The position numbers and the translations under genes are program-made. Shown here one piece after another: positions 2,304 to 21,125 of a stretch of 56,348 nucleotides of DNA. Each line of letters starts with the position of its first letter. The stretch's first letter is position 1. The DNA lies in contig DVFV01000042.1 of the NCBI GenBank assembly GCA_018713045.1, positions 1-56,348 of the forward strand. Direction: 5' to 3'. Source of the stretch: Candidatus Coprosoma intestinipullorum (GTDB lineage Bacteria > Bacillota_I > Bacilli_A > RF39 > UBA660). A model generated the notes under the pieces. That model had not been told where the DNA came from and did no database searches. It was given only the letters and a program-made list of their open reading frames with translations.

Positions 2304-2468
2304 GAAATAATGAATGAGTAAATTTTATTATGTGCTATTCAAGATTTAAAAGAAGTATTAACTAAAATAGAAAACACGGATATTTATATTAAAGAAGATT
2401 GGATAAGACTAGAAAAAGAAATAATTTCTTTTCTAGCTAATTTAAGTAGATATAGACTTTATAATAAA

Positions 2469-3580: not shown

Positions 3581-3721
3581 AGTTGAAAAATAACTTGCAA
3601 TCCTCCTCAAACAGAGCTAACATACAACACAAGGAATCGATTTTTATCTAATTATTTTAAAAGATGATCCCCATCGCCCCATTTTTGAAAGATTAAACCT
3701 ATATGGTTTTATAATAAAAAG

Positions 3722-3756
3722 ACTAGGAAATTTATTTAAAAATCCTAGTTTTTTTG
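3722..3756 (+). terminator. rho-independent terminator closing the two-gene unit downstream of brxL
   Basis: ACTAGGA (3722-3728) / TCCTAGT (3743-3749) stem with a 14-nt loop, followed by a T run. Confidence 0.6.
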
Positions 3757-3774
3757 TTTAGAAAATGAAAATAT

Positions 3775-3863
3775 TGTACGTATGTCTTTTAAATAAATAA
3801 GATGCAAAACTCATAATTTTTGCATCTTAAAAAATTTTTAACTGCACGTATGTGTCTTAAAAT
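3775..3863. repeat. direct repeat, perfect 12-bp inverted repeat, direct repeat (possible operator or terminator-like element)
   Basis: TGTACGTATGTCTTTTAAAT (3775-3794) and TGCACGTATGTGTCTTAAAAT (3843-3863) flank TAAGATGCAAAA (3798-3809) / TTTTGCATCTTA (3818-3829). Confidence 0.6.
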
Positions 3864-3956
3864 ATAAAAAAAATAAAATTCACTCTACAAATCTTATTTT
3901 TATTATCGTAGAAGGACAAGAAAAAACAAATTTGTTATAATGAATGTAGTAGGTGT

Positions 3957-4871: not shown

Positions 4872-4872
4872 C

Positions 4873-5433
4873 GTGAAAGGAATAGTTTTAATTGGTGCTT
4901 CTAGAGCAGGTAAAAGTACGTTTTCACAAATGTTAATGAAAGAACTTAAATCATGTCAGATTATATCAGGTGATTTAGTAAGACTTGCATACAGAGATGA
5001 AATATATAAATATAAAACAGTAAAAGCAGGACTTATGAAAGAAATCCTTGAGTATCGAAAATTCTTAAAATCGTATTTTGATTATAGTGTTAAATATAGT
5101 GAAAGTTTATACGTTATTCTAGATACCGTTGATTTTAAACCGGAAGATTATAAATTGTTTGAAAATAATATTATTATAGTTTTTGGTTACCCGGACTTAA
5201 CTAAAAAAGAATGCCTTTCTAACTGGAGAACTTATCAAAGATTAAAAGATTGGACTAGAAATAAATCAGATGAAACACTTTTAGAAAAAGCTGAAAGAGA
5301 AATTGCTAAAAGCCAACAATTTGAAAAAGATTCAAAAAAATATAAGCTAAAATTTGTAAATACATCATTTAATAGAGAGAAAGTATTAACTGAACTACTT
5401 GGATGGGTAAAAAATGAGCTAAATAAAAAGTAA
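4873..5433 (+). CDS. P-loop NTPase, small-molecule/nucleotide kinase-like
   Basis: 186 aa; GTG start 6 nt after GAAAGGAA and 1 nt after the upstream stop. Walker A GASRAGKST at the extreme N-terminus, as in the (d)NMP/AAA_33 kinase fold. Confidence 0.6.
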   Translation: MKGIVLIGASRAGKSTFSQMLMKELKSCQIISGDLVRLAYRDEIYKYKTVKAGLMKEILEYRKFLKSYFDYSVKYSESLYVILDTVDFKPEDYKLFENNIIIVFGYPDLTKKECLSNWRTYQRLKDWTRNKSDETLLEKAEREIAKSQQFEKDSKKYKLKFVNTSFNREKVLTELLGWVKNELNKK

Positions 5434-5469
5434 TCATTGATATATTGATTTACTAATTATAAATTAACA

Positions 5470-5478
5470 TGCTATAAT
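5470..5478 (+). promoter_or_regulatory. extended -10 promoter element TGcTATAAT
   Basis: Exact TGnTATAAT with a TTTACT-like -35 about 17 nt upstream. Lies 160 nt before the MazG-like gene. Confidence 0.4.
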
Positions 5479-5640
5479 AAATCATAAATATCAGTGGTGA
5501 TTATATGAGTGAAAAAGTCATAAAAAGAGAACGAATTAGGAAAACTAATGATTGATGAAGTAAAAAGGATTTAAAACATTACTATATAGAATAAGAAAAT
5601 AAAACTTAATTATGAAAAAGTTATTTTAGGAGATGTAAAA

Positions 5641-5955
5641 ATGAAAAATCTTATAAAAGAGATAAAACAATTTACTGAAGAACGAGACTGGGATCAATTT
5701 CATAGCCCAGAGAATTTAGCAAAATCAATTTCTATAGAGGCAGGCGAACTATTAGAGTGCTTTCAATGGAACTCTAATTATAATATTGATGAGGTAAAAT
5801 CAGAGCTTGCTGATGTACTTAATTATTCATTATTGCTTGCAGATAAATTAGGCGTAGACCCTGAACAAATTATTTTAGACAAAATGAAGATTACTGCAAA
5901 AAAATATCCCATAGATAAAGCTAATGGAAAAAGTACAAAATATAACAAATTATAG
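5641..5955 (+). CDS. MazG-like nucleotide pyrophosphohydrolase (YpjD/DCTPP1-like small all-alpha NTP-PPase)
   Basis: 104 aa. FTEERDWDQFHSPENLAKSISIEAGELLECFQW...ELADVLNY is the characteristic MazG-like core. TAGGAG RBS. Confidence 0.85.
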   Translation: MKNLIKEIKQFTEERDWDQFHSPENLAKSISIEAGELLECFQWNSNYNIDEVKSELADVLNYSLLLADKLGVDPEQIILDKMKITAKKYPIDKANGKSTKYNKL

Positions 5956-5967
5956 GAGAAGTAAATT

Positions 5968-7692
5968 ATGAATATAAAAACATTAAAATTTAATGATGGA
6001 ACACCAGCAAACTTGAGAAATATGGAATATGGGACAAATTGGCCAGTTGTTTATATTATAAATAACGACAAAGAAGCATACATTGGTGAAACAACAGATG
6101 TTAGTATTAGATCTAATCAACATTTAGCAAATACTGTTAGAAGAAATCTTGACACAATAAATGTTATAACGGATAAAACATTTAACAAATCCGTAATTTT
6201 GGATTTGGAATCATTTCTTATAAAGTATATGGCAGCAGATAAAAAATATAAACTTCAAAATGGTAATGGAGGAATGCAAAACCATAATTATTATCAAAGA
6301 AAAATATATGAAAAAGAATTTAAAAATATATGGATTCAATTAAAATCAAAAGGATTAGTCAAACATGATTTAAAGACAATTGAAAATTCGGATTTGTTTA
6401 AATATTCTCCGTATAAAACTTTAACCGTTGATCAATATATGATTGCAAATGATATATTAAGTGTTCTCTCAAATGATATAAAAAACAAAAAAACTTCACT
6501 TTTCCTAGTTCACGGAGGGTTTGGGACAGGTAAAACAATATTAGGAATTTACTTATTGAAACTATTATCTCAAGCTAAAGATTCAACTCAAATTGAAGTA
6601 GAAGATGAAGAACTAGAATATAATTTATCAGAAATTATAAATAATGAAGCAATAAAAAAATTTAGAATAGGTTTAGTTATTCCTATGAACAATTTAAGGG
6701 CCACCTTGAAAAAAGTATTTAAAGACATTAATGGTTTAGATGCTAAAATGGTACTAAGCCCCAATGATGTGGCTAAAAGTGATAATATATATGACTTGTT
6801 AATTGTGGATGAAGCGCATCGCCTTAGAAGGAGGCAAAATTTAACACAATACAAAAGTTTTGATAACAATAATAAGAAGTTGAACTTAGGAGATAAAGGA
6901 ACAGAATTAGACTGGATTTTACTAAAAAGTAAATATCAAATACTACTTTATGATGAAAACCAATCGATTAAACCAACAGATGTTAGAAAAGAAGATTTTG
7001 AACAACTAATGTTAAGAAAAAATTATCGTCCATATTATCTTGAAACACAATTGCGCTGTTTATTAGGCGGCAATGAATATGTTGATTACATAAAAAATAT
7101 ATTTAGTAATAACCCTCCAGAGAAAAAAGTTAATTTTAAAAAATATGATTTTAAAATTTTTGATAATATAAACGACTTGATAGAAGAAATCAAACAAAAA
7201 GATAAAGAATATGGATTGTGCAGAAATATAGCAGGTTTTGCTTGGCCGTGGAAAAGTAAAGAGAAAAAATTACCATCCCATATTACCAAAAGAGAAATGA
7301 ATAATATAGTTAATAATGGAATTTATGATATCGAAATAGATGGGGAAAAATATATATGGAATACAAAAACAACAGATTGGATTAATTCATCTAATTCAGT
7401 CAATGAGATTGGTAGCATTCATACAATTCAAGGTTATGATTTAAATTATGCAGGGGTAATAATAGGAAATGAATTAAAATATGATAATAAAAAACATAAA
7501 TTTATTGTTGATAGAAAAAAATACTATGATGTAAAAGGTAAATCAGCAACAAGTGATGAAGATTTATTACAATATATATTAAATATATATTGTACAATGT
7601 GTACACGTGGTATGCTAGGGACATATTTATATGTATGTGATAAAGAATTAAAAAAATATTTACAAAAATATGTATCAACAAAACATAAATAA
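5968..7692 (+). CDS. GIY-YIG nuclease domain fused to a DUF2075/Schlafen-type P-loop helicase
   Basis: 574 aa. N-terminal VVYIINNDKEAYIGETTDVSIRSNQH (GIY-YIG), Walker A GGFGTGKT, Walker B LLIVDEAHRL. Starts 12 nt after the MazG-like stop. Confidence 0.75.
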   Translation: MNIKTLKFNDGTPANLRNMEYGTNWPVVYIINNDKEAYIGETTDVSIRSNQHLANTVRRNLDTINVITDKTFNKSVILDLESFLIKYMAADKKYKLQNGNGGMQNHNYYQRKIYEKEFKNIWIQLKSKGLVKHDLKTIENSDLFKYSPYKTLTVDQYMIANDILSVLSNDIKNKKTSLFLVHGGFGTGKTILGIYLLKLLSQAKDSTQIEVEDEELEYNLSEIINNEAIKKFRIGLVIPMNNLRATLKKVFKDINGLDAKMVLSPNDVAKSDNIYDLLIVDEAHRLRRRQNLTQYKSFDNNNKKLNLGDKGTELDWILLKSKYQILLYDENQSIKPTDVRKEDFEQLMLRKNYRPYYLETQLRCLLGGNEYVDYIKNIFSNNPPEKKVNFKKYDFKIFDNINDLIEEIKQKDKEYGLCRNIAGFAWPWKSKEKKLPSHITKREMNNIVNNGIYDIEIDGEKYIWNTKTTDWINSSNSVNEIGSIHTIQGYDLNYAGVIIGNELKYDNKKHKFIVDRKKYYDVKGKSATSDEDLLQYILNIYCTMCTRGMLGTYLYVCDKELKKYLQKYVSTKHK

Positions 7693-7734
7693 TTAGAGTT
7701 CTATAAGTACGTAAAAAATTAGAAAGGATTAAAC

Positions 7735-8979
7735 ATGAAAAAAGGAGCAGAACTATATGGAAGCCTTTTAGAGCAATATGAAATAACTGAGCATATTGCC
7801 AATGGGGGAAATTCAGAAGTATATAAGGTTAAAAATTCAAAAGGCGAAATATATGCGTTAAAATTATTAAATACAGGAATTTCTAAAGAAAAACTTAGAA
7901 GATTTAAAAATGAAATGGCTTTTTGTATTAGAACAGAAAATCCAAATATAATAAAAATAGTTGACAATGGAATTACGGATGACAAAGAACAAATATTTTA
8001 TATAATGCCCTATTATAATAAAACATTGAGAACATATATTAATGAAGAACATACTGCTCAAGATAAGATACAACTTTTTATCCGATTGTTAAAAGGAGTT
8101 TCCTTTTTTCACAAAAAAGAAATAATTCACAGAGATATAAAACCGGAAAATATTTTGCTGTCAAACGACAATTTTCCGATAATTTCTGATTTTGGAATAG
8201 CACATTTCACATCAGAAGAAATGATAACGCAAATTGAAACAAAAATTGGTAGTAAAATGGCAAATTTTCAATATGCAGCACCAGAACAAAGAGAAAAAAA
8301 TGGAATAATAACAAATAAAACAGATATCTATGCACTGGGATTAATATTTAATGAGATGTTTACTCGAAAAATACCCTTTGGCAACTCATACAAAAAAGTG
8401 AAAGATATAAATAAACAATTTGCTTTTTTAGACAAAATAATAGATAAAATGATTTCTCAAAGTCCTGACAATAGACAAAACAGCGTTGACGATGTTATTT
8501 ATGAAATAAAAGCTGAACTTGAGATAAATAAGAGGGAAAAGGAAATAAAAGAATTACAAGAAATAACATACTCTTATGATACAGAAGAAGATATACTAAT
8601 TTTGGAACCACCCAAATTAATTGATTTTAAGTATGATGATATAATTGAAAAGTTATTTTTGTACCTAGATAAAAAAGTAAATCAAGAATGGATAAACTGT
8701 ATGACAGAAAAAAGCTGTATTTCACTATTTGGATATGAACCAAAAAAATTTAGGTTTGAGAATAATGTTGCTTCTGTTAAACTTCCATTTAGTAATTTGG
8801 AAAGGTTACAATTAATTATTGATTATTTTAAAGAATGGATTAATCATGCAAATCAAGAATATCCAGCATATGTTAAAAAGAAAAGAGAACAAGAACAGTT
8901 AAGGCAAGAACAAATAATAATGAAGAAAATTGAAAGAGAGGAAAAAATAAAAAAGGAGTTGGAAAAAGCACATATTTAA
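7735..8979 (+). CDS. Ser/Thr protein kinase with an uncharacterised C-terminal domain
   Basis: 414 aa. Hanks motifs YALK, HRDIKPENILL, SDFG, AAPE. The C-terminal ~130 aa have no recognisable motif. Starts 42 nt after the upstream stop. Confidence 0.85.
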   Translation: MKKGAELYGSLLEQYEITEHIANGGNSEVYKVKNSKGEIYALKLLNTGISKEKLRRFKNEMAFCIRTENPNIIKIVDNGITDDKEQIFYIMPYYNKTLRTYINEEHTAQDKIQLFIRLLKGVSFFHKKEIIHRDIKPENILLSNDNFPIISDFGIAHFTSEEMITQIETKIGSKMANFQYAAPEQREKNGIITNKTDIYALGLIFNEMFTRKIPFGNSYKKVKDINKQFAFLDKIIDKMISQSPDNRQNSVDDVIYEIKAELEINKREKEIKELQEITYSYDTEEDILILEPPKLIDFKYDDIIEKLFLYLDKKVNQEWINCMTEKSCISLFGYEPKKFRFENNVASVKLPFSNLERLQLIIDYFKEWINHANQEYPAYVKKKREQEQLRQEQIIMKKIEREEKIKKELEKAHI

Positions 8980-9006
8980 AAACTATATTAAACATAATCA
9001 AATTCT

Positions 9007-9039
9007 AAACACCATATCAAAATTGGTGTTTTATTTTTA
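9007..9039 (+). terminator. rho-independent terminator after the kinase gene
   Basis: AAACACCA (9007-9014) / TGGTGTTT (9024-9031) stem with a 9-nt loop, then TTATTTTTA. Confidence 0.6.
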
Positions 9040-9073
9040 TTATGATATACTAAAAATGTAATGGAGTTTGTGT

Positions 9074-11566
9074 ATGAGAAGAATTTTGATTGATGGTGTA
9101 GATAAAACAAAAGAGATTGAAAGTATAAAATTAAATAATAATAACTATATTATTAAATTTAAAAATAGTGATAAACAATATAATTATTCAAACGAAAGAA
9201 TAAAAATAGAAAACAATAATTTTGAAAACAATCTAAAATATTTTAAAGAAATAGCTGAAAAAGTGAGCATAGTTGTAGGTGGATATAATGTTCTTGGTTC
9301 AAGATATAAAAAATTAGATAATTTAAATAAAGATAGTATTTTAAATTGTTATTTAAAAGGTACTTTGCCACCAGCATATAGAATAGTTCGGCATGCTAGA
9401 TTTCCTTTTGGTTTCAATCAAAGCCAAAAACTAGCTACAGAAAGAGCTATCACAAATAGAATAAGCGTTATAGAAGGCCCACCAGGAACCGGAAAAACTC
9501 AAACAATCTTAAATATAATATCTAATTTAGTTATGAATGGAGAAACAGTTGCTGTTGTTTCCAATAATAATTCAGCCATTCAAAATGTCTATGATAAGTT
9601 AAAAAGCAATAATTTAGATTTTCTAGTTGCATTTCTAGGCAAAGATAAAAACAAAACAGAATTTATTGAAAATCAAAAAGAATTACTAAACTTAGATGCA
9701 TGGTTAATAACTGATGAAGAAGCTGAAAACAAGATAAACTTTCTAAACAATAAAGAATACGAGTTAAATAGAAAACTAGAAGATCAGAATAAACTTGCTA
9801 AAGATATTCAGTATTTAGAAGCTCTAAGCCTCGAATCAAAACAATTCTCAAAATATTATAAAACGAGAACCAAAAATATTGCCATAAAATGGTGGCGTAA
9901 TCCAAATTATAAAAACCTATTAAAATTATGGCTTGAATTAGAAAATAAATCTACAATCTCAATATATTCAAAAATAAAATATTTTATTAAATATGGTCTT
10001 TTACCATTTGATATTTTTGACAATAACTTAAATGATATAATTTTAGAATTAAAAAATCTTTATTATAAAAATCGTGTTACTAATTTAACAAAAGAAATTA
10101 ACAGATTAAAAACAAGTCTAAATAACTATAATATTAAAGAGGAAATGAAACATTATACAGAAATATCGATGCAAATATTTAAACATAGACTTGCAAAAAG
10201 ATATAAAAAGGTTAAGCGAAAGAAATATGAAAAATCAGATTTAAAAAGAATGTCAGCTGAATTTCTTAAAGACTATCCTGTTATTTTAAGTACAACCTAT
10301 TCTTTAGTATCAAGCTTATCAAAAAATATAATGTATGATTATATAATTGTCGACGAATCATCGCAGGTAGACTTAATAACCGCTGTATTATCACTATCAT
10401 GTGCGAAAAACGTTGTTATTGTTGGTGATTTAAAACAGCTATCCAACGTTGTTACAAATGAAAACGCCATTATAAGTGATCAAATCTGGTTAAAATATAA
10501 TATATCAAACGAATATCGCTATCGGAATCATAATCTATTATCTTCAGTTATAGAACTTTATCCTGATATAACCAAAACTATGTTAAAAGAACATTACCGT
10601 TGCAATCCAAAAATAATAAACTTTTGTAACTTAAAATTTTATAATAATGAATTAATTATCTTATCAAATTCAAATCCATCTAAAGATACGTTACAAATGT
10701 ATGTTACAAGCGTTGGTAACCACGCTCGAGATCACGTAAATAGAAGACAATTAGATATAATCAGAGAAGAAATACTTCCTTCAACATATAATGATGAATC
10801 GATTGGTATTATTTCTCCATATGTAAATCAAAGTAATCTATTAAAACAAGAATTCAAAAACTATTCTAACGTTCAGGCTGACACAGTAGATAAATTTCAA
10901 GGAAGAGAAAAAAATATAATTATATTTTCAAGTGTCGACAATAAAATCAAGAGTTTTACTGATCAACCTAATAGATTAAATGTTGTTGTTTCAAGAGCTA
11001 TAAATAAGTTTATTCTAGTAGTCAATGACTCTGCCATAACTAATACAAATGGTAATATCCAAGATCTAATTAAGTACATAAAGTATCAAGATGGTAAAAT
11101 AGTAAACAGTAAACTACACAGTTGTTTTGATTTGCTATATAAAGAGTATTATAGAGAAAGACAAAAAATAGCTAAAAGAACAGGAATTATAAGTGAAGAT
11201 ATATTTTATGAAGAATTATTAAAAATATTAAACAAAAATCATATAGATGGTTATGATATCATAACTCATGTACCATTAGATGAAATCATTGAAGACTTAG
11301 ATTCACTAACAAAAGAAGAAATGAAATTTAAAAAAAATATTCATTCCCATGTTGACTTCTTAATATTTGATAGAGCATCTTCTGAATATCGTTTAGCTAT
11401 CGAAGTAGATGGTGGTTATCATAATCCATTTAATCAAGAAAACACCCATCAAGTTCATAACGATGAGTTAAAAAACAGAATGTTTGAAAAAGCCGGACTT
11501 CCGTTAATAAGATGTAAAACTGATGGAATACCTGACGAAAAAGAAATAATTAAATATTTAAACTAG
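9074..11566 (+). CDS. Upf1/DNA2-like SF1 helicase fused to a C-terminal DUF2726-type (restriction-endonuclease-fold) domain
   Basis: GPPGTGKTQT, IIVDESSQ, VGDLKQL, HYRCNPKIINFCNLKFY, VDKFQGREKNIIIFS, RLNVVVSRA. C-terminal HVDFLIFD..AIEVDGGYHN..ELKNRMFEKAGLPLIR. ATG 9074 lies 7 nt after GGAG; the ORF track starts at TTG 9068. Confidence 0.8.
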   Translation: MRRILIDGVDKTKEIESIKLNNNNYIIKFKNSDKQYNYSNERIKIENNNFENNLKYFKEIAEKVSIVVGGYNVLGSRYKKLDNLNKDSILNCYLKGTLPPAYRIVRHARFPFGFNQSQKLATERAITNRISVIEGPPGTGKTQTILNIISNLVMNGETVAVVSNNNSAIQNVYDKLKSNNLDFLVAFLGKDKNKTEFIENQKELLNLDAWLITDEEAENKINFLNNKEYELNRKLEDQNKLAKDIQYLEALSLESKQFSKYYKTRTKNIAIKWWRNPNYKNLLKLWLELENKSTISIYSKIKYFIKYGLLPFDIFDNNLNDIILELKNLYYKNRVTNLTKEINRLKTSLNNYNIKEEMKHYTEISMQIFKHRLAKRYKKVKRKKYEKSDLKRMSAEFLKDYPVILSTTYSLVSSLSKNIMYDYIIVDESSQVDLITAVLSLSCAKNVVIVGDLKQLSNVVTNENAIISDQIWLKYNISNEYRYRNHNLLSSVIELYPDITKTMLKEHYRCNPKIINFCNLKFYNNELIILSNSNPSKDTLQMYVTSVGNHARDHVNRRQLDIIREEILPSTYNDESIGIISPYVNQSNLLKQEFKNYSNVQADTVDKFQGREKNIIIFSSVDNKIKSFTDQPNRLNVVVSRAINKFILVVNDSAITNTNGNIQDLIKYIKYQDGKIVNSKLHSCFDLLYKEYYRERQKIAKRTGIISEDIFYEELLKILNKNHIDGYDIITHVPLDEIIEDLDSLTKEEMKFKKNIHSHVDFLIFDRASSEYRLAIEVDGGYHNPFNQENTHQVHNDELKNRMFEKAGLPLIRCKTDGIPDEKEIIKYLN

Positions 11567-11671
11567 AAGAAAAACTATAATATAAATATATACTGTATGT
11601 ATTGATTTGTTAGATAAAAAATGATAATGTAATACATAAATTTTTTTGTTAAAATAAATAAAGGAGATATT

Positions 11672-14600
11672 ATGGACGAAGAAATAAAAAATGAACTTAA
11701 CAAAATATTGAATGAATTACCAACCGAAAATTCTTGGCTAGATTATAAAGCAAAAGCGTATGAAAAATCAGAACTTGCTAGTTTGACAAATGATTTATGT
11801 GCGTTTTTAAACTCGGAACAATCTTTTGGAAGAAATAAATATATAATTTGTGGAATAGGTGATAATAAAGATAGGCTTGAAATAAAAGAAAAAGATATGC
11901 TGGATGACCATTATTTCCAAGATGTTGCTAAAAAAATATATCCAACCCCCAAAATAGAAACAGGTACTTTTAAGCATGTATATAGAGGAAAAGAATATTG
12001 TTATGGTTATATTTTAATATCTAAAGATAATGATGATAGAGTTTATGAAATAGAAAACGGGAAAATAAAAAGAGATGATAATAATCTATATACTATTAAA
12101 CAAATTTGTGAACAGAACGTTTTTGCACCTGTTGCATGGATAAGAATTGGCAGTACAAAAGATATACTTAAAGAACCAACCCGAAGGAGAATCTATGAAT
12201 TTGATAATTTAAAAAAGAAATTCACAGTAAATGATAATATAGGATATCTTCTTGATGACAATAGGGCAAAAAATGATAAAATAATAAAGACAGCTTTATT
12301 ATTTGGTGAATGGAATGAAAATAATATAAATGATAAAAAAATAATAGAAAAATTTTCTGAATTTTCTTATAATGAGTTCATTGAAATTATTAGACAACTT
12401 GCAAAAAATGAAAAAAATTTTTATTTTAAAAATGGAGTCTGGAAAATAAAAAATCGAATTAAATATATTGAATTTTATTCTTTGAATTTTTACAAAGAAG
12501 ATTTAGAAAGTTTTAAAAAAATAATTGTTGAAATTTTAAGTGAAAAACATCCTAAATTTGATTTATCTTCAGACAAAAGGTATTTATATAATATATACAA
12601 TAAAGTCATAAAATACTCGGCCGAAATAAGGAATGGTGTAGCTGAAACATTAGTATTTGTTGAATACTTGAAAAGTAATTTTGAAAATTGTAAAGACGCA
12701 GCAGCAAACTTTTCTGTTCTAACTATTAGAAATATTTTAGAAAGTTCAAATTGGTATACATGGGCAAGTCTTGATAATTTATTGCCACTTTTTGCAGAGG
12801 CGTCTCCATCAGAATATTTACAACAATTAAAAAAATATTTATTTAATGATAAAGAAAAGAAAATATTGATTGAGAAAGAAGAAGGTATAACTACTTATAA
12901 TTATTCAACGTCTATATATTCTAGTTTGGAACTTATTGCATGGAATAAAGAATATTGTGTTAGTGCTTGTATGATTTTATTTGAATTTGCAAAGGAAGAT
13001 AAAAAAGCAATTAATCATATAGTAAATATTATTTTACCATGGCATCCAAATACATTTGCCCCATTATCATACAGATTAGTAATTGTCGAAAATATAATAA
13101 AAAGAGATATTTTAATAGGATGGCAAATCTTAAAAAAACTTATGCCAGAAGAGGTTACTTATGCTATACCAACATATAAACCAAAATATATAAATGTTCC
13201 AAAAGATGATATTTCTGTTACTAATGAAGAATATTTTAATCAAATTGATTTATATTTAGATATAATGATTAAAAATTGTAAAACAAGCAATGATAGATTG
13301 CTTGATCTAATTAACTTATTAAACAAGGTATCTAAGAAAAACTTTTATAAAATATGTAATTATTTAAAGTCCTCAAAAGTTTGTAAAAAGAATGATAGTA
13401 GTAAGTATAAATTATGGGACAATTTAGAGATAACTGTTTCTTGGATAAAAAAACATTCTCAAATAAATGCTGAAGCAAAGAAAGAAATGTTAGAAAAAAT
13501 AAATGAAGTTATAAACTGTTTAAAACCTCAAAACAATTTATATGTCATTTCAAGGTTGTTTAAGAATGATGAGTGGAAATTATTTGATGAATATGATAAT
13601 TATGACGAAGCAGAAAAAAAACTTTCTAAATTACAATTTGACTGCATATTAAATATATATAAGGAAAATGGAATTAAAAAAATAATCGAATTAGCAAAAA
13701 TTGTTGAAGACACATTTTTACTAGGTATCATTACCTCAAAAATAAAAATATCTTATGAGGACGAGAAAAATATAGTGGTTTCCAATTTAGACAAAAGAAA
13801 AAAATTAATTGAATATGCAAAAGGATATGTTTACAATAAATATAACCTTCAAAAAAATAAATATGATAGTGAAATGATTAATAATTTATCTAATAAATCA
13901 AAACTTAATTTTTTGTTGATGTTACCGTATACCATTTTAACATTTAAAAATGTAGAACGATTTTTAGGAAAAGATTATAAAAAATATTGGAAACAAGTTG
14001 ATATAAGAATTATAAATGAAGAAGAAGCATTAAATTATAGCATTATTAAATTAATGGAGGTAAAAAGATATGAAAGAGTGCTTTGGATGTATAGACTTTC
14101 ATTGCAAAGTAATAAACAGATTAAATGTGATAATAATATTATACTAACTTGTCTCGAAAAAATAAAAAGCAATTTTAATAAATATGATATCTGTGAAGCA
14201 ATAAAGGATTTACAAGAAAATAATGCTAATGAAGAAAGATTATTTAATATAGAATGGAAATTTTTACCGTTGCTTAATGATAAAAAATATAGACCAATTA
14301 CAATAGAGAAAGTAATTTCTACGAATGCTAATAAGTATTCTGAAATATTAGAATTAGCATTTAAAGAGAAATCAAAAATAAATACTGAAAGCAACATTAA
14401 TCCAGATGTTGCAACAAATGCGTATAGATTATTACATCAATGGAAATTAGTTCCTGGGACTAATGATGACGGATATATTAATTCAGTTAAACTAAAAGAA
14501 TGGTATGAAGAAATGCAAAATATTTGTAATAAAAAAGATCGACTAGAAGTTGGATTACTATACTTTGGGAAAGTACTATTTTATTCTCCTGAAGATAAAT

Positions 14601-14872
14601 CACATTTTTGGATAGATAAAACTGTTGCGGAGATACTCAACAATAATGAAACAATTAGAAGAGGTTATACAAACGAAGCATTTAATTCAATCGGTATAAT
14701 TAAATGGGATGAAAAGGGCTCAGAGTATTTGAAATACTGCAATGAATATAAAAAGAAAGCAGAGGATACTGAAATAGCCGGTTACTATAATTTTGCAATG
14801 GCATTAAGAGATGTTGCAGATAATTTTAATCGACAAGCAGAATATGTAAAGGATAGATATCATGACTTCTAA
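11672..14872 (+). CDS. 1066-aa protein with an N-terminal AlbA_2/Schlafen-type domain and a long helical region of unknown function
   Basis: AAAGGAG RBS. N-terminal ENSWLDYKAKAY...YIICGIGD fits the AlbA_2 pattern. I recognise no catalytic or NTPase motif in the remaining ~930 aa. Confidence 0.6.
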   Translation: MDEEIKNELNKILNELPTENSWLDYKAKAYEKSELASLTNDLCAFLNSEQSFGRNKYIICGIGDNKDRLEIKEKDMLDDHYFQDVAKKIYPTPKIETGTFKHVYRGKEYCYGYILISKDNDDRVYEIENGKIKRDDNNLYTIKQICEQNVFAPVAWIRIGSTKDILKEPTRRRIYEFDNLKKKFTVNDNIGYLLDDNRAKNDKIIKTALLFGEWNENNINDKKIIEKFSEFSYNEFIEIIRQLAKNEKNFYFKNGVWKIKNRIKYIEFYSLNFYKEDLESFKKIIVEILSEKHPKFDLSSDKRYLYNIYNKVIKYSAEIRNGVAETLVFVEYLKSNFENCKDAAANFSVLTIRNILESSNWYTWASLDNLLPLFAEASPSEYLQQLKKYLFNDKEKKILIEKEEGITTYNYSTSIYSSLELIAWNKEYCVSACMILFEFAKEDKKAINHIVNIILPWHPNTFAPLSYRLVIVENIIKRDILIGWQILKKLMPEEVTYAIPTYKPKYINVPKDDISVTNEEYFNQIDLYLDIMIKNCKTSNDRLLDLINLLNKVSKKNFYKICNYLKSSKVCKKNDSSKYKLWDNLEITVSWIKKHSQINAEAKKEMLEKINEVINCLKPQNNLYVISRLFKNDEWKLFDEYDNYDEAEKKLSKLQFDCILNIYKENGIKKIIELAKIVEDTFLLGIITSKIKISYEDEKNIVVSNLDKRKKLIEYAKGYVYNKYNLQKNKYDSEMINNLSNKSKLNFLLMLPYTILTFKNVERFLGKDYKKYWKQVDIRIINEEEALNYSIIKLMEVKRYERVLWMYRLSLQSNKQIKCDNNIILTCLEKIKSNFNKYDICEAIKDLQENNANEERLFNIEWKFLPLLNDKKYRPITIEKVISTNANKYSEILELAFKEKSKINTESNINPDVATNAYRLLHQWKLVPGTNDDGYINSVKLKEWYEEMQNICNKKDRLEVGLLYFGKVLFYSPEDKSHFWIDKTVAEILNNNETIRRGYTNEAFNSIGIIKWDEKGSEYLKYCNEYKKKAEDTEIAGYYNFAMALRDVADNFNRQAEYVKDRYHDF

Positions 14873-14879
14873 ATTTATT

Positions 14880-15277
14880 TATGAGATTGTAAGGGCAGAA
14901 AACGGTAAAGTATTCTGTCCTTTTTGTCATAGTTTATATATTATTAAGGCTTTGCTAAGAAAAATAATATAAATTTAATACAGATAAAATCTGGAACGTA
15001 AAAAAATGATAGCGGAGATACTTTAGCTGATGTTAATCAACTTCAATCAGGATTAGAATCTTTTTTATCTCATTTTTATGGTGTCTCCTCTAAACACTTA
15101 CAACATTATTTAGACTAGCATTCATTTGATAAATACATAAATTATACTGTTAAAATATTAAATCAAGCACATGACATTGAATCTACAGTCATAACAAAAA
15201 ACACTGATATTTTATATAAAAATAACAGTGGTTTAGACTTTAATGAGTTAGCGTTCATTTTTCAATTAACTTACTAA
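14880..15277 (+). pseudogene. decayed IS1595-family transposase remnant (Zn-ribbon N-terminal fragment plus C-terminal fragment; DDE core deleted; in-frame TAG)
   Basis: 14880-14972 encodes RAENGKVFCPFCHSLYIIK (IS1595-type zinc ribbon). 15002-15277 encodes SGLESFLSHFYGVSSKHLQHYLD*HSFDKY, matching the conserved ...FW..LKR...G.YH.VS.KHLQRYLDEF.F tail, with TAG at 15116-15118. Confidence 0.55.
14892..14926 (+). terminator. probable rho-independent terminator after the 1066-aa gene
   Basis: AGGGCAGAA (14892-14900) / TTCTGTCCT (14913-14921): 9-bp stem with one G-T pair and a 12-nt loop, then TTTTTG. Confidence 0.45.
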
Positions 15278-15641
15278 ATCCAATAATGGTATCACTGAGT
15301 GAATTTTATAAAGTCTAATTTAAATTATTAATAATTTCTGTACTGAGGTTAGACATTCTATTTACGGTTAAATTTAAAAGATAATGACTGCCCATGTATT
15401 AATTGCATTCATCAAATATGGAGTATACATTTTATAAATTTCATGATGTATTCTATTAATCGCCTCAATAAGACTTTTACTCATTATACTAACCAAATTA
15501 GAATAGTATGCATTTACATATTTCTTATCTAATAAATTTATAGATTTGTTGGGATGATTTTTTCATCATTTGGTGGAGTAATGTTTTTGTTTTTTTCATT
15601 TTAAATATCCCTCTCATTCAAAAAGCTCATACAATAACACA

Positions 15642-16877
15642 TTATTCTTCTTTTTCTACAATATTTTCTATTTCTTTACCTATCTTTTCAATTACTCCTA
15701 CAACTAAGGCATTTCCCATCATAAAATATCTTTTTCTATCAGTCATTCCAGTATTAGTCCAATCATCCGGAAAACCATTAATTCGCTCACATTCTTTAGG
15801 CGTTAATAAACGTAATTTTTTAGTTTGATAATCTTCAATAACATGGGTAGTTCTACTAACTCCACTTTCACTAGTAAGCATAGTTCTTGCAGGCGCATCT
15901 AAATTATCTGGAAAAGGCATTGAGCCTTCAGAGTAATAATACGGTTCACCATTAGGTTTAACTCTTGGAATTTTTTTACTTCCTTTTAAAAATTCAAACT
16001 TCTTAATTTGGTCTTTATTTAAAAAATATTTTTTATCCACACCGCCAGTTTCTCTAATTTTTCTTAAAGGATAAATTTTGTCACAGTCAGCTTTGACTTT
16101 AACAGTATATATTCCACCATTCTTCATAACTCCTGCATTATAAAATTGACATTTAAACATATTGCTTACTTCGACTAAATCTTTATATTCCGAAATATCA
16201 GCTTTATTAATAGCTAAATATTCAGATTGAATTGGAAACTCTTTTGAAAAAATTCCTTCGTCAAAAACAATATTTCTATCATTAAGCTTATGCATCTCTT
16301 TATAATATTTTGTTGACTTATGATATGCAAAAATATAAGTTCTTCTTCTTTTCTGAGGAAGTCCATATTCTCCCGCGTTAATAACTCTCCATTGTACATC
16401 ATAACCATTTTCATAAAAACTTCTAAGCATCATTCCAAAATCTCTCCCACGTTGCTTAGCCGGTGAAAGAAGTAATCTATCGACATTTTCAAGCAATACA
16501 AAAGGTGGTTTTTTAATTGATAAAGTTTCTTCTATTGCCCACCATAAAACACCTTTTTTTCCTTCAATACCTTTACTATTTGAAAGAGTTTGCGCAACTG
16601 AATAATCTTGACATGGAAATCCGCCAACTAATAAAGTATGATCTGGTATATCATTTTTATCTACCTCAAATATGTCTACATTAGAAACATCTCCACCAAA
16701 TCTTTTTTTATAACACTCATATGCTTCTTGACTTTTAGTTGCAGGTTCCCATTGATTCGCCCATAAAAACTTCCAATTACCATTTTCAATAACTTTCCCA
16801 TTTTTTAGTTCGACATGATTTAAACCACATCTAAATCCGCCAACACCAGCAAACAATTCTATAGCTGTTTTCTTCAT
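15642..16877 (-). CDS. DNA (cytosine-5)-methyltransferase, M.Sau3AI-like
   Basis: 411 aa. Motif I ELFAGVGGF, motif IV GGFPCQDYS, motif VI ENV, C-terminal GNALVV. AAGGAGGG RBS. Size and partner match M.Sau3AI (412 aa from memory). Confidence 0.9.
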   Translation of the reverse strand: MKKTAIELFAGVGGFRCGLNHVELKNGKVIENGNWKFLWANQWEPATKSQEAYECYKKRFGGDVSNVDIFEVDKNDIPDHTLLVGGFPCQDYSVAQTLSNSKGIEGKKGVLWWAIEETLSIKKPPFVLLENVDRLLLSPAKQRGRDFGMMLRSFYENGYDVQWRVINAGEYGLPQKRRRTYIFAYHKSTKYYKEMHKLNDRNIVFDEGIFSKEFPIQSEYLAINKADISEYKDLVEVSNMFKCQFYNAGVMKNGGIYTVKVKADCDKIYPLRKIRETGGVDKKYFLNKDQIKKFEFLKGSKKIPRVKPNGEPYYYSEGSMPFPDNLDAPARTMLTSESGVSRTTHVIEDYQTKKLRLLTPKECERINGFPDDWTNTGMTDRKRYFMMGNALVVGVIEKIGKEIENIVEKEE

Positions 16878-17050
16878 ATCTATTGCCCTCCTTATTGTTA
16901 TATTGCCATAATTATATTATAATAAAAATAAATAAAAAGATCAACTTTTACTAACTATATTATAAATGTTTTTTGATAATAGATCAACCTCTACACAATA
17001 AATATTTTAAAATAAAATTAGTAAAAAAACAAGATCAAAAGGAGAAATTT
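16878..17050. promoter_or_regulatory. divergent intergenic control region of the R-M pair, carrying three GATC sites
   Basis: GATC at 16938, 16981 and 17032. The first two lie within an identical AGATCAAC octamer. Confidence 0.4.
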
Positions 17051-18439
17051 ATGAAAAAAGGTAGAAGATATAGTAGGCAAGAAATTGAAATAATATCAAA
17101 ATCCGCACTGGGTAAATCATTAAATGATATTTTAAACTCAGAACTTATAACTATTGAAGATAAAGAAGCAAATAAAGGTGGATTAGGTCAATTAATAGAA
17201 AAATATTTATTTGGTATGGATAATAATAGTGATTCAGAGCCCGATTTTATGCCAGCTGGCATAGAATTAAAAGTTACACCATATAAACGAATAAAAGGTG
17301 GCAAACTTTCAGCAAAAGAAAGATTAGTACTCAACATAATTGATTATGAAACAGAATATAAAAATGAATTTAAAAGTAGTCACTTTTGGTATAAAAATAA
17401 TAAAATTGAACTTTTATGGTACCTATGGGAACCAAATAAAGATAAAAAGGACTATATAATAACACATGAAAAATTATTTGAACTAGCTAAAAGTGAAGAT
17501 TTAAATCAAATAGAAAAAGACTGGAATACAATAATAAATAAAATAAGGCAAGGAAAAGCTCATGAAATATCAGAAGCCGACACTATGTATCTTGGTGCGT
17601 GTACAAAGGGTGCAAACTCTAAATCACTGCGTAGTCAGCCATTTAATTCCACCAAAGCAATGCAAAGAGCATTCTGCTTTAAAACATCATATATGACCCA
17701 ATTAGTAAGAAAATATATTGGAGATTATAGTGATGTTGAAAGCATTTTGAAAAATACAAAAGAATCATTTGATGAATTCATTAATAAAGTTATCGATAAA
17801 TATAAAAATAAAACTCAAAAAGAATTAATGGAAGAATTAAAAATCGAAACAAAAGCTAAAAATGTGTTTAGTATGATAATCAGTAGAATGTTTAATGTAA
17901 AATCAAAACTAAAAGAAACTGAAGAGTTTCAAAAAGCAAACATTATTCCAAAAACTATAAGAGTCGAAGAAAACGGTAAAATAAAAGAATCAATGTCATT
18001 TCCTTCTTTTAGCTTTGAAAAGATTTTAAATACCGATTTTGAAAATTCTGATTTAAGAGAAGAGTTAGAAACGACGAAATATATGTTCTTTATCTTTAAA
18101 AAAGAAAATAATGAATATGTGTTTAAAGGGATTAAATTATGGAATATGCCTGAAAGTATTATCAATTCTAAAGTTAAAGATATGTATACCAAAACTCAAA
18201 AGGTCATTGCTGAAGGAAACATAGTAAATCATATTGATAAGTATGGAAAAAGAATCACTAATTTTCCAGGTATGCATGATAATGGAGTTTGCCATGTAAG
18301 ACCTCATGGACGAAACGCTAAAGATACCAATCTATTGCCTGTAAAAGATAAACTAACAAACGCTACTGAATACACTAAGCAATGTTTTTGGCTTAATAAT
18401 AGTTACATAAAGGAAATTATAAGTGAATTTATAAAATAA
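17051..18439 (+). CDS. type II restriction endonuclease, MutH/Sau3AI family (probable GATC specificity)
   Basis: GGLGQLIEKYLFG...DSEPDFMPAGIELKVTP is the MutH/Sau3AI catalytic D..(E)LK signature. ATG 17051 follows AAGGAG; the track start at TTG 16973 is probably an artefact. Two-domain length is close to R.Sau3AI. Confidence 0.85.
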   Translation: MKKGRRYSRQEIEIISKSALGKSLNDILNSELITIEDKEANKGGLGQLIEKYLFGMDNNSDSEPDFMPAGIELKVTPYKRIKGGKLSAKERLVLNIIDYETEYKNEFKSSHFWYKNNKIELLWYLWEPNKDKKDYIITHEKLFELAKSEDLNQIEKDWNTIINKIRQGKAHEISEADTMYLGACTKGANSKSLRSQPFNSTKAMQRAFCFKTSYMTQLVRKYIGDYSDVESILKNTKESFDEFINKVIDKYKNKTQKELMEELKIETKAKNVFSMIISRMFNVKSKLKETEEFQKANIIPKTIRVEENGKIKESMSFPSFSFEKILNTDFENSDLREELETTKYMFFIFKKENNEYVFKGIKLWNMPESIINSKVKDMYTKTQKVIAEGNIVNHIDKYGKRITNFPGMHDNGVCHVRPHGRNAKDTNLLPVKDKLTNATEYTKQCFWLNNSYIKEIISEFIK

Positions 18440-18487
18440 TATAGAAAATCAATATATATATGTTTATAAACGAAAAGAGGAATTACT

Positions 18488-19081
18488 ATGGGAAAAATAT
18501 CTAATGCCATTAAAATGTTAAACTATTTAAATACAGGTAACAAATATAATGTTAAACAGTTATCAGAAAAATTAGGTATATCTGAAAGAATGGTTAGGTA
18601 TTATAAAAATGAATTAGAAGAGGCAGGCATTCCCATAGAAACATTTATGGGCCCAGATGGTGGATATTACATCTTAAAAACAAATGAACCATATAATCAG
18701 TTTAATAAATATGACCTTGAACTACTAGAAGATGTTTACAACAAATTAAAAGAAATAAACTACTCAAACATAGATAAACTAGAAAAACTAATATCTAAAA
18801 TAAAACATCTAAGTGACATCGAAGAAGAAAAAAGTAAATACTTTATTACTAATAAAATAGAAGATAATTCTAAAATGTATTTCACCTTAAATAAAGCAAT
18901 TGCTAACAAAGAAAGAATATTAATCTTATATAAAAACCTTAAAGGAGTATTGAAAGAAAGATACATTCATCCCATGCACATATTTAAATATGATAATAAA
19001 TTTTATGTCACTGCCTTTTGTGAACTAAGGAATGACATAAGACACTTTGAATTTAGTAGAATAAAAATAGTAGAAAAATAA
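18488..19081 (+). CDS. HTH plus WYL-domain transcriptional regulator
   Basis: 197 aa. N-terminal HTH_11-like YNVKQLSEKLGISERMVRYYKNELEEAGIPIE. C-terminal WYL-type ERYIHPMHIFKYDNKFYVTAFCELRNDIRHFEFSRIK. Confidence 0.75.
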   Translation: MGKISNAIKMLNYLNTGNKYNVKQLSEKLGISERMVRYYKNELEEAGIPIETFMGPDGGYYILKTNEPYNQFNKYDLELLEDVYNKLKEINYSNIDKLEKLISKIKHLSDIEEEKSKYFITNKIEDNSKMYFTLNKAIANKERILILYKNLKGVLKERYIHPMHIFKYDNKFYVTAFCELRNDIRHFEFSRIKIVEK

Positions 19082-19093
19082 AGACATAATATT

Positions 19094-19143
19094 TCCTACA
19101 TAAACGTTATAATGAAATTGAAAACGTTATGTAGGATTTTTTT
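19094..19143 (+). terminator. strong rho-independent terminator after the WYL regulator
   Basis: TCCTACATAAACGTT (19094-19108) / AACGTTATGTAGGA (19123-19136): 14 bp with a one-base bulge, then a T7 run. A TATAAT sits at 19108-19113, spanning the last base of the 5' stem arm and the start of the loop. Confidence 0.7.
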
Positions 19144-19160
19144 ATGAAAGGAATATATAA

Positions 19161-21125
19161 ATGAGAGTAGTAAGTATAGGAGATTTAGTAACAGATTATT
19201 ACTATAAAAACGGCAAACTAATTGGTGTAAGTGGTGGCATGAGTTCCCATAATATAATTGCAAATATTACTAAAATGAAATTAGATACAGCCGTATTTGG
19301 CGTTTGTGGTAACGATATAACTGGACGTATATCTATAAAAAGCTTAAAAGATATCGGAGTAAATGTAGATAATATAGAAATAAAAAAAGACCTAAAAACA
19401 AGATGCTTCCACGTATCATATTTTGATAATGATGGCAAACTAGAATTTAAATCTAAAAAAAGATGTCCGTTATGTAATGAAAAAAGATGGTATGAACCAA
19501 GTAAAATTGATTCAAATAAAATCTTAACCAAAATAAAAGAGGATGACATCCTCGTATTTGATAACCTAAATAACGAAAATCAAAATATCATCGATAACTG
19601 CCAAAATAGAAAAATGCTAGACATAGGTCAGTACTTTGAATTTGAAAATTATAATAATGAAGAAATAGTAAATAAACTATACAACAAATTTGATATTATT
19701 AATTTAAACGAAAGAGTAGAACAATATTTAATAAACAGATTTCATTTAAATAATTCAAAAGATATTTTCAATATGCTAAAGCCGAATTTAATCATCATAA
19801 CTAGAGGCCAAAGAGGTTCAGATTTTATCTGCCAAGAATTTAATATAAATATGAAACTAGAAAACCCAGCCGAAGAAATAGATCCAACCGGTGCCGGAGA
19901 TGCCTTCTTCGCATTATTTATTAGTGAATACATAAAAAACAAATTTATAGTCAGTCGAAGATTTATTGAAATAACATTCGAAAAAGCAACGAAACTAACT
20001 AAAAAAGTAGTAAAATCATTTGGTGCAAGAGGGCATATTAATTCCTTATATAAAATAAAGAAATTAAATAATTACTGTACCTGTCAAAACTTTGAAATAA
20101 AAGCTCCTAGAAAAAACAAGACATGTAATATAAATATTAATAATCTAGAAACAAGAGTCATAAATGCCCTGAATAGTAATGCATATCATAAACTAGAAAA
20201 AATAAATTTTAATGAAATAAAAAATAGTTTATTTATTGGAACTGGTGGTTCACTTGCTGGAACCACATTCGCATCCAAAGTCATTAATAATTTATATGGA
20301 ACAAATATCATTTCAAGCCTTCCAAGAGACGTATATTACCGTAATAACAAACAAATAGATAAAGTATTTTTGTTCTCATACTCGGGAACTACCAGTGACC
20401 TATTAACAGGAACAGCTAATATAGATAATTCAAAAAAATATATAATAACTAAGGGACCTATTAAAAAAATTAATACTACCATGAACATTCCCAAAACGAA
20501 TATAATAACATATAGAACAAACAATAATAAAAGCAGAGAAAGAGGATTTTTATCTTTTGAGGGAGTTCTTTCACCAGCAAGTTTATTTTTAAAACTATAT
20601 TTAAAACAAACCACAAAAGATGATGAAATAAAGTTTATAAAAAATAGATTTAAATATTGGAAAGAACATTTTAAAACATACTTTAAAGATAACAAACAAG
20701 AGCTACAAAACTTTTTTACCAAAGAAAACATATTTAGCATATTCACCGGTGATTATACAGAAGCTGCATCCACCGATTTAGAAAGCAAAATAACAGAGTC
20801 TGGCATATTCAATTGTATACTCCATGAAAAGAAAAACTTTTCTCATGGCAGATTTATAAACTATGAGTACTTAAGTAAAAAGAAAAATATATATTTTAAA
20901 CAGAAGACAACTGGTCCATACGAAGAAGGGCTGCTAAATTATCTAAAAGACGGCGATAATCTAATTATTGAAAGTAATTATGATGGAATACTTTGTGAAT
21001 ACGATTTATTAATTGCTACTCAGTATTTAATATACTATATCGCAAAACTTCTAGATATTGACATTTCTAAACCAGCATATAGTGAGGAAGCTATGAAAAT
21101 ATATTTTTACAAAGGAAACTTATAA
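19161..21125 (+). CDS. fusion of a PfkB/ribokinase-family kinase (N-terminal) and a SIS-like phosphosugar-binding region (C-terminal)
   Basis: 654 aa. PfkB signature DPTGAGDAF and N-terminal IGDLVTD...GG; inserted CPLCNEK element. C-terminal half has GTGGSLAGTTFA and FSYSGTTSDLL, reminiscent of SIS domains. Confidence 0.65.
   Translation: MRVVSIGDLVTDYYYKNGKLIGVSGGMSSHNIIANITKMKLDTAVFGVCGNDITGRISIKSLKDIGVNVDNIEIKKDLKTRCFHVSYFDNDGKLEFKSKKRCPLCNEKRWYEPSKIDSNKILTKIKEDDILVFDNLNNENQNIIDNCQNRKMLDIGQYFEFENYNNEEIVNKLYNKFDIINLNERVEQYLINRFHLNNSKDIFNMLKPNLIIITRGQRGSDFICQEFNINMKLENPAEEIDPTGAGDAFFALFISEYIKNKFIVSRRFIEITFEKATKLTKKVVKSFGARGHINSLYKIKKLNNYCTCQNFEIKAPRKNKTCNININNLETRVINALNSNAYHKLEKINFNEIKNSLFIGTGGSLAGTTFASKVINNLYGTNIISSLPRDVYYRNNKQIDKVFLFSYSGTTSDLLTGTANIDNSKKYIITKGPIKKINTTMNIPKTNIITYRTNNNKSRERGFLSFEGVLSPASLFLKLYLKQTTKDDEIKFIKNRFKYWKEHFKTYFKDNKQELQNFFTKENIFSIFTGDYTEAASTDLESKITESGIFNCILHEKKNFSHGRFINYEYLSKKKNIYFKQKTTGPYEEGLLNYLKDGDNLIIESNYDGILCEYDLLIATQYLIYYIAKLLDIDISKPAYSEEAMKIYFYKGNL

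Follow-up and report, generated by a model that had tools for sequence, protein, structure and literature searches.

The Hhe protein HheA joins DUF4011, an Upf1-like helicase and a Vsr/DUF559-type nuclease in one polypeptide, and the staphylococcal protein Nhi has a nuclease at its N-terminus and a superfamily 1 (SF1) helicase at its C-terminus. A similar combination of helicase and nuclease is found in Mokosh, which consists of MkoA and MkoB (type I) or of MkoC (type II) and uses a phospholipase D (PLD) nuclease (10.1101/2022.12.12.520048), and in CnuH of type III-B CoCoNuT systems, an Upf1-like helicase that has an N-terminal Sul7s-like winged helix-turn-helix (wHTH) and a large insertion, helical or coiled-coil, behind Walker A, and that is fused to a Vsr-like PD-(D/E)xK nuclease (PMC11090510). 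Prokaryotic Schlafen nucleases (pSlfn), which are defined by an Ex4(E/D)xK motif (PMC13056530), carry this motif in an N-terminal AlbA_2 domain followed by a large non-catalytic C-terminus, as in pSlfn5 with its Ig-like sensor and in Cash, a Schlafen-Csx15 protein, and upon a trigger they cleave tRNA and arrest growth (PMC13056530, PMC13462974). DSR2 couples SIR2 to an alpha-solenoid C-terminal domain, a sensor that binds a phage structural protein (PMC11263360, PMC11850899), whereas Vulcan (WP_050009967.1) couples an N-terminal NIR/DUF4062 effector, an NADase, to C-terminal HEAT repeats, is activated by a small lambda phage protein and works by abortive infection (10.64898/2026.09.04.749371). 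Here we analyze contig DVFV01000042.1 of Candidatus Coprosoma intestinipullorum, the whole 56,348 nucleotides of which we call the window, and in particular two neighboring genes on its forward strand: one for an Upf1-like helicase with a C-terminal DUF2726 nuclease domain (9074..11566), and one for a 1066-residue protein that combines a Schlafen domain with a long helical solenoid (11672..14872), hereafter the giant. A first-pass annotation, made from the sequence alone, had proposed that the two form a new variant or a new two-gene system, possibly with an adjacent kinase as a third part.

Both genes look like defence genes, and we consider it probable that they are two unrelated, adjacent single-gene immune modules, a helicase-nuclease and a Schlafen-solenoid protein, occupying a variable defence slot. 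Among the ~40 related loci sampled, none of eight distinct helicase contexts contains the giant or the kinase, none of ~15 distinct giant contexts contains a helicase orthologue (tblastn with the window proteins finds none), and none of six close kinase loci contains a helicase. The first-pass annotation had itself named the two genes never being neighbors elsewhere as the observation that would speak against a partnership, and this is what every locus fetched revealed; the pair is absent from every other locus examined, homology breaks off between the genes, and orthologues of the kinase and the helicase do not adjoin in these loci, so that neither the two-gene system nor the kinase as its third part is supported.

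The surroundings of the helicase orthologues differ from one group to the next. Those with 74-75% identity (L016-L020) have a type I restriction-modification (R-M) system and a SieB-like gene upstream and a WYL gene downstream, and those with 75% identity (L021-L023) have an MwoI-like R-M pair on one side and Peptidase_M78/HTH genes on the other. The closest relative, the 96% identical helicase of L037, is followed by DUF2441, a different AlbA_2/Schlafen protein of 484 residues and a WYL gene, the product of which is 99% identical to that of the window over the 110 residues present on the contig; no kinase is found there. Downstream of the 85% identical helicase in L038 lies a GmrSD_N gene. 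Distant relatives (34-45%) are also found without giant or kinase: downstream of Gabija in Chryseobacterium (L052), after a methylase and a TIR protein in Parabacteroides (L051), among housekeeping genes in a spirochaete, and on an E. coli plasmid. Homologues of the giant, for their part, are preceded by an integrase, DUF2207, Fic and SNF2, type I HsdR, a 233-residue protein without assignment, or MazG and a DUF2075 helicase. The last arrangement is that of L025, where MazG, DUF2075 and the giant homologue follow each other with neither the kinase nor a helicase orthologue. In 11 genome loci of giant homologues, R-M methylases and integrases are the most frequent neighbors.

Nucleotide comparisons lead to the same picture, as the blocks found by blastn end at gene borders: the kinase block at 7741-8985, the helicase block at 8994-11568 and the giant block at 11658-14873. 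Identity in the helicase block is 96% (L037), 83% (L038), 76% (L016) and 77% (L021), and in the giant block 72-77% (L024, L025, L012 and L026), and positions 11569-11657 of the spacer in between have no match in any related locus compared by blastn. Two of these loci, L016 and L024, share a frame that runs from type I R-M genes to a WYL gene, a 160-residue protein, a 771-residue protein, CAT, a hydrolase and PfkB; in L016 the slot in this frame is occupied by the helicase, in L024 by the giant. Since the two genes occupy one slot alternatively and their homology is limited by gene borders, we read them as independent cassettes in a hotspot. In the window, the slot has a left frame at 3957-5433 (a YunG-UDG fusion and a P-loop gene) and a right frame at 18488-21125 (WYL and a 654-residue PfkB-domain protein). 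The frame genes are kept at 72-84% protein identity in related genomes (L021, L016, L024), whereas the content between them varies. The slot is thus a variable defence-island position in a gut Bacillota genome of low GC content (~27% in the window).

Several observations weigh against independent immune modules. The loci sampled include many near-duplicates from gut metagenomes. In the AlphaFold2 (AF2) model of the giant, the AlbA_2 part is of moderate confidence, with a predicted local distance difference test score (pLDDT) of 63-79, and the sensor role of the solenoid is argued by analogy because its Foldseek matches are generic HEAT repeats only. For each of the two genes there are homologues amid housekeeping genes (L004, L054), and many solenoid relatives with an HTH_3 N-terminus are annotated as transcriptional regulators; both facts would suit a non-immune role for one or both genes, with the helicase-nuclease acting in DNA repair or RNA decay, the solenoid protein serving as a scaffold or regulator, and the island position being incidental. 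We find such a role unlikely, however, since the distribution is patchy, the giant's closer relatives having been confirmed in 12 loci only in a pattern-seeded scan of 185,579 species genomes, since the content of the hotspot changes between near-identical strains, since R-M genes and integrases dominate the neighborhoods, and since the N-termini found on the solenoid form the standard set of abortive-infection effectors.

The other points on this side concern the partnership. As first recorded, the giant's open reading frame (ORF) of 1066 residues begins 105 nt downstream of the helicase, on the same strand. The spacer (11567..11671) folds into a weak AT-rich hairpin only (z -1.6), and the one strong terminator comes after the giant; given the shared orientation, the short spacer and the lack of a convincing terminator within it, the helicase and the giant may be co-transcribed in this strain. 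A promoter scan gave 121 sites against 114 expected and is uninformative in such AT-rich DNA, so no promoter is claimed for the spacer. In addition, L026 encodes a distant SF1 helicase of 1005 residues (5752-8766, minus strand; 28% identity) with a restriction-endonuclease-like C-terminus (EFDVVLY...IELQGGEH), ~1.2 kb upstream of a giant homologue, on the opposite strand and with one gene between; this is the sole helicase-nuclease near a giant outside the window. Finally, the Schlafen protein of L037 stands two genes on from the 96% identical helicase, and its AlbA_2 domain is 33% identical to that of the giant. These features would suit one cooperative two-gene system, for example one in which the Schlafen protein is switched on by single-stranded DNA (ssDNA) or RNA ends made by the helicase-nuclease; human SLFN11 is activated by ssDNA. 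We nevertheless judge a cooperative pair to be very unlikely, as the orthologous pair is missing from all the helicase and giant contexts counted above, the homology blocks break between the genes, one slot has alternative occupants in L016 and L024, the L026 helicase is encoded on the opposite strand and is just 28% identical, and Schlafen genes are generally common near defence genes (PMC13056530, PMC13462974). Still less probable is a split type I Mokosh-like system, in which kinase and helicase would be an MkoA in two genes and DUF2726 would replace the PLD nuclease MkoB: one 1112-position PADLOC MkoA model does match both the kinase (positions 7-286, its N-terminus, 3.4e-33) and the helicase (616-1099, 4.5e-46), and the two genes are adjacent and co-oriented, but no kinase accompanies the helicase orthologues at 96, 85 and 75% identity, the kinase orthologues lie elsewhere without a helicase, a hairpin followed by a U-run lies between kinase and helicase, models of stand-alone kinases fit the kinase better than MkoA does, and a PLD/MkoB protein is absent from the nearby genes.

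We thus treat the helicase-DUF2726 protein as the product of a stand-alone gene. Its longest ORF runs from a TTG at 9068 to 11566 (832 residues), and the ATG at 9074 is preceded by GGAG 7 nt upstream; this ATG is the likely start, which gives 830 residues instead of the 831 first reported. The full SF1 motif set that had been described holds up. Walker A (GPPGTGKTQ, residues 135-143, 9476..9502) and Walker B or motif II (DESSQVD, residues 427-433, 10352..10372) are invariant in an alignment of 26 helicase homologues, as are GDxxQL (451-456), EHYRC (506-510), TVDKFQGxE (604-612) and RLNVxxSRA (634-642). Pfam matches AAA_11 (6.5e-24) and AAA_12 (1.3e-24), and the phmmer matches in the PDB are to IGHMBP2 (2e-18), UPF1 (4e-17) and DNA2 (8e-17), and also to SEN1. 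In the AF2 model (pLDDT 83.6), a small beta domain at the N-terminus is joined by two RecA domains, by a long coiled-coil insertion (~214-377) that follows Walker A, and by an alpha/beta nuclease domain at the C-terminus (727-830); the best Foldseek matches of the model are SETX (4e-21), IGHMBP2 and UPF1, with E-values from 1e-21 to 1e-17. With motifs I-VI, the two RecA domains and this fold, the protein belongs to the UPF1-like SF1B helicases.

The C-terminal module had likewise been recognized correctly as DUF2726, a restriction-endonuclease-fold domain (PMC3710099, PMC3424549). It lies at 11195..11560, is matched by Pfam at residues 710-831 (2.7e-16, 59.9 bits against a cut-off of 24.7), and contains the segments HVDFLIFD, EVDGGYH and AGLPLIR in the translation, with H759-x-D761, E777-V-D779-G and K800 as the putative active-site residues. 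In the same alignment, H759, D761, E777, D779, Q793, D797 and K800 are all invariant. Based on the score and on D761, E777, D779 and K800, we assign the domain to the PD-(D/E)xK superfamily as a predicted nuclease. The search returned >7,400 homologues of the helicase-DUF2726 protein from phyla that include Bacteroidota, Spirochaetota and Bacillota; the best 120 of these all have AAA_11, AAA_12 and DUF2726, and nearly all are full-length at ~850 residues. No PADLOC v2.0.0 or NCBIfam model covers the protein full-length or above cut-off, and a literature search for DUF2726 together with a helicase found no defence paper. The helicase-DUF2726 protein is a member of a very large, very common, unnamed and stand-alone family, a variant of the helicase-nuclease theme. 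We infer that it acts as an ATP-driven translocating nuclease: the helicase would move 5'->3' on single-stranded phage nucleic acid, either DNA replication intermediates or RNA, and its own DUF2726 nuclease would cleave in a manner coupled to translocation, like Hhe, type II Mokosh and Nhi.

Comparison with the named systems bears out the earlier view of a Mokosh-class helicase with a different nuclease fold that fits no canonical system. The profile searches against Mokosh and Hhe that the first-pass annotation had suggested gave partial matches to the helicase core and no PLD. In PADLOC, the models MkoA, MkoC, PDC-S37 and Hhe cover the core only, and in NCBIfam every match is below its cut-off: IGHMBP2 145 against 349, PLuB 102 against 999, ProA 95 against 1500, and Hhe 81.4 against 2000. 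Hhe has in common with the protein the helicase clade and a C-terminal nuclease of the PD-(D/E)xK superfamily in one polypeptide. However, the Hhe models have ~1,800-1,900 positions, so that the 830 residues found here are half their length; Pfam finds no DUF4011, the PADLOC Hhe match is confined to residues 118-234 (~120 residues, 2.7e-18), and the nuclease is DUF2726 instead of the DUF559/MTES_1575 of Hhe, which reach just 0.003-0.005. At 81.4 bits and this length, the protein falls outside Hhe. The core matches MkoA and MkoC of Mokosh at ~1e-46, and it is the helicase core alone that aligns; the PLD nuclease of Mokosh is present neither in the helicase protein nor in its neighbors. Type II Mokosh does not apply, as the match covers positions 600-962 of the 1136 in MkoC (8.7e-46), Pfam PLD is absent and the C-terminus is DUF2726, and type I does not apply either, as no PLD/MkoB match exists in the tested genes from 273 to 19081. 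No Nhi model occurs among the PADLOC matches, although the presence of such a model in the library was not confirmed; the order of domains, with the nuclease C-terminal, is presumably the reverse of that in Nhi. The closest described logic is that of an Upf1-like helicase with a fused PD-(D/E)xK nuclease, as in Hhe and in CnuH of type III-B CoCoNuT, the latter also sharing the insertion after Walker A. The wHTH of CnuH was not detected in the helicase-DUF2726 protein, and the McrB-/McrC-like CnuB and CnuC of CoCoNuT are not among the neighbors, which are the kinase, a DUF2075 protein, the Schlafen giant and R-M genes, with no McrB/McrC domain; the protein thus does not count as a type III-B member.

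The giant is also the product of a stand-alone gene, and it has 65 full-length homologue clusters with 35-69% identity. (Another 1066-residue ORF, in L028, proved unrelated to it by BLASTP.) The AlbA_2 domain that had been assigned to the first ~130 residues is confirmed by Pfam at residues 19-128 (11726..12055; 2e-7, 32 bits against a cut-off of 25.3) and includes the segment ENSWLDYK. Across 16 members of the giant family, down to 35% identity and aligned full-length, E19, D24, Y25 and K26 of the motif E19-NSWL-D24-Y-K26 are invariant. The giant thus has the motif in the form Ex4DxK and falls within the pSlfn as they are defined; its motif corresponds to the catalytic E17 and D22 of CbCash (PMC13462974). 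The statement that the rest of the giant has no catalytic motif is valid for the C-terminal ~870 residues (12263..14869), whereas the AlbA_2 part itself carries Ex4(E/D)xK. To these ~870 residues Pfam, NCBIfam and PADLOC assign nothing, and a PDB sequence search with the family profile gave no match at E <= 1, nor did the N-terminal 200 residues give any. Modeling of the giant and a Foldseek search, both of which had been recommended at the outset, indicate a HEAT-like solenoid with weak and generic matches. The AF2 model (pLDDT 82) has a disordered linker at 130-196 and a confident all-helical body from ~198 to the end, mostly at ~90, and the Foldseek matches are to HEAT/ARM solenoids such as Pds5, transportins and CAND1 (E ~1e-3, TM score 0.15-0.25). 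Matches this weak support the predicted fold class, not a function. A separate Schlafen protein, the 484-residue one that follows DUF2441 in L037 (both within 2817-4862), has the motif ENEFLDFK, and its N-terminus matches PDC-S50 in PADLOC.

In its architecture, the giant appears to be a novel variant among the bacterial Schlafen effectors that were validated recently. Like them, it has an N-terminal AlbA_2 domain in front of a large non-catalytic C-terminus, and its gene likewise adjoins R-M and other defence genes. The difference is in the partner, an ~870-residue HEAT-like solenoid in the giant, and Ig-like, Csx15, GHKL, HTH or DUF262 domains in the known proteins; the survey of pSlfn contains 558 'unannotated' clusters (PMC13056530). 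DSR2 and Vulcan can be regarded as precedents for an effector with a helical-repeat sensor in the absence of an NTPase, and together with pSlfn5 these two, Vulcan with some reserve as probably one, would be the closest analogues of the giant. DSR2 has the same layout of effector and alpha-solenoid in one chain of ~1000 residues, but the effector is SIR2 and there is no sequence similarity; homology is unsupported, given that the profile has no PDB match at the above threshold and that the best 50 Foldseek matches are eukaryotic HEAT proteins only. Vulcan also has a toxic N-terminal effector and C-terminal helical repeats in one protein, a likeness by description. Its effector is an NADase and that of the giant a Schlafen nuclease, and the N-terminus of the giant is AlbA_2 with no DUF4062 match. 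By analogy with pSlfn5 and Cash, from which trigger, substrate and phenotype are taken, the giant would be a sensor-effector that cleaves tRNA upon phage detection. The solenoid would bind a phage protein or otherwise sense infection, binding would release or oligomerize the Schlafen domain, and the freed domain would cleave tRNA and thereby stop translation, resulting in abortive infection or growth arrest.

The solenoid occurs far beyond the Schlafen proteins. A search of 1.84 billion representatives with the profile of the giant family gave 5,744 clusters (at 50% identity), 2,961 of them below 1e-30, and most of the 5,744 align just from position ~200 on; a profile of the solenoid alone returned mainly close relatives and added little. 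The N-terminal domains are swapped on it. In the best 148 of the 5,744 clusters, they are of the AlbA_2 type in 32, a ~285-residue domain without assignment in 56, a ~370-residue domain in 18 and SIR2 in four, and 21 have none. Others are PNP_UDP_1, GT4-conflict, Metallophos, DUF4062, two kinds of TIR (including TIR_2), FRG, SMEK_N, Abi_C, HTH_3 and, weakly, DUF4145. A SIR2-solenoid member matches PADLOC pAgo-SIR2 at 1e-101. There is also a split form: in a metagenome-assembled genome of Nitrospira (L055, 4046-7592), a 321-residue gene product homologous to the ~285-residue type, the commonest N-terminal domain, is encoded upstream of an 863-residue solenoid protein, and the two genes overlap by 11 nt. 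Relatives occur as single genes on conjugative plasmids too. Toxic N-termini that are exchanged on one conserved, large and non-enzymatic module are what is typically seen in immune proteins that unite sensor and effector in a single chain. The solenoid has no model in the copies of Pfam, NCBIfam and PADLOC that were used, and it is not described as a family in the libraries or papers searched. A DUF4062-solenoid protein, P0276, is among the members of the family, and Vulcan may accordingly be one as well. We would put forward, at slightly less than even odds, that the solenoid defines a very large class of immune receptors, each a single chain without an NTPase; Vulcan would be the first characterized member of this class, which would combine a HEAT-like sensor with at least 12 swappable N-termini (Schlafen, TIR, SEFIR-like TIR, SIR2, PNP, NIR/DUF4062, HEPN-like Abi_C, FRG, SMEK, metallophosphatase, GT4 and HTH), coupled to the solenoid by fusion or through an overlapping upstream gene.

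The kinase gene (7735..8979, forward strand) lies immediately upstream of the helicase, as had been noted, and encodes a Ser/Thr protein kinase of 414 residues (Pkinase, 3.5e-37). Its PADLOC matches are mad6 (2e-46) and PD-T4-6 (1e-44), ahead of the MkoA N-terminus given above. Orthologues with 67-72% identity (L039-L044) are in every case flanked by a large serine recombinase on one side and a LysM/amidase gene on the other, and no helicase accompanies them; their placement looks like that of cargo at one end of an integrative element. The kinase is a third independent module, outside the helicase and giant units. Between kinase and helicase, a hairpin followed by a U-rich run is predicted at 9007..9031 (forward strand; dG -8.9 kcal/mol, z -2.3). 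It is inside the helicase block in three of four related loci (L037, L038 and L021, where the block starts at 8994-9000), and in L016 the block starts at 9021. The terminator-like hairpin that was said to close the unit is well supported: its stem at 14891-14922 is followed by UUUUUG (14891..14926, forward strand), and it has a dG of -15 kcal/mol and a z of -4.9, with none of 200 shuffles folding equally well. A scan for consensus terminators, which allows loops of 3-8 nt, missed it, probably on account of the longer loop that joins the main arms of the stem.

Defence genes are plentiful in the rest of the window, which contains BrxL, a type II R-M pair, WYL, a SoFic-like protein and Wadjet II. 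The BrxL gene at 273-2303 (PADLOC bit score 1142) is near the left edge, and the window probably starts at the end of a BREX system. At 5641-7692, a MazG-like gene is followed by one for a GIY-YIG protein with a DUF2075 (Schlafen group-3-type) helicase; this pair, which may form a separate two-gene module, recurs in L025 (4968-7071) immediately before the giant homologue, where MazG is 76% and the helicase only 30% identical. The divergent type II R-M pair at 15642-18439 comprises a minus-strand gene for a cytosine-5 methyltransferase (PADLOC MTase_II, 1.5e-160) and a gene for the restriction enzyme (REase_II, 3e-108). Between it and the giant, 14927-15640 is without genes; these 714 bp had no match in a blastn search against plasmids. 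A short frame there ends in SHFYGVSSKHLQHYLD and a stop codon, an ending that we take to resemble the C-terminus of IS1595/ISXO2-type transposases, and the stretch may be a transposase remnant at the junction. Further downstream, a Fic-domain protein at 21235-22167 matches two defence models, SoFic (4e-37) and PDC-S04 (3e-38), and 23615-31567 holds a complete type II Wadjet operon, JetA2, JetB2, JetC2 and JetD2 (PADLOC E-values from 1e-100 down to 0). Genetic code 4 was suspected when one called L037 gene (DUF2441) was seen to read through two TGA codons, and it was rejected for the window because TGA terminates four of its 36 long ORFs, including the 1357- and 496-residue Wadjet genes.

If our reading is right, three consecutive co-oriented genes in this genome are three separate cassettes, and adjacency in a defence island is no evidence for a partnership. 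The interval contains no categorical novelty, but both of its main genes are clean single-gene candidates. The helicase-DUF2726 protein would then represent an abundant architecture, with thousands of ~850-residue proteins across phyla, and a candidate for defence by a single gene. The giant would be the Schlafen, or tRNase, version of the proposed receptor class, and it would link the bacterial Schlafen effectors to a helical module that also bears TIR, SIR2, PNP and NIR effectors. The solenoid family thus merits a systematic look; if its module is a sensor of phage proteins, the natural swaps of effectors on one scaffold would be useful for understanding how receptors are activated without an NTPase.

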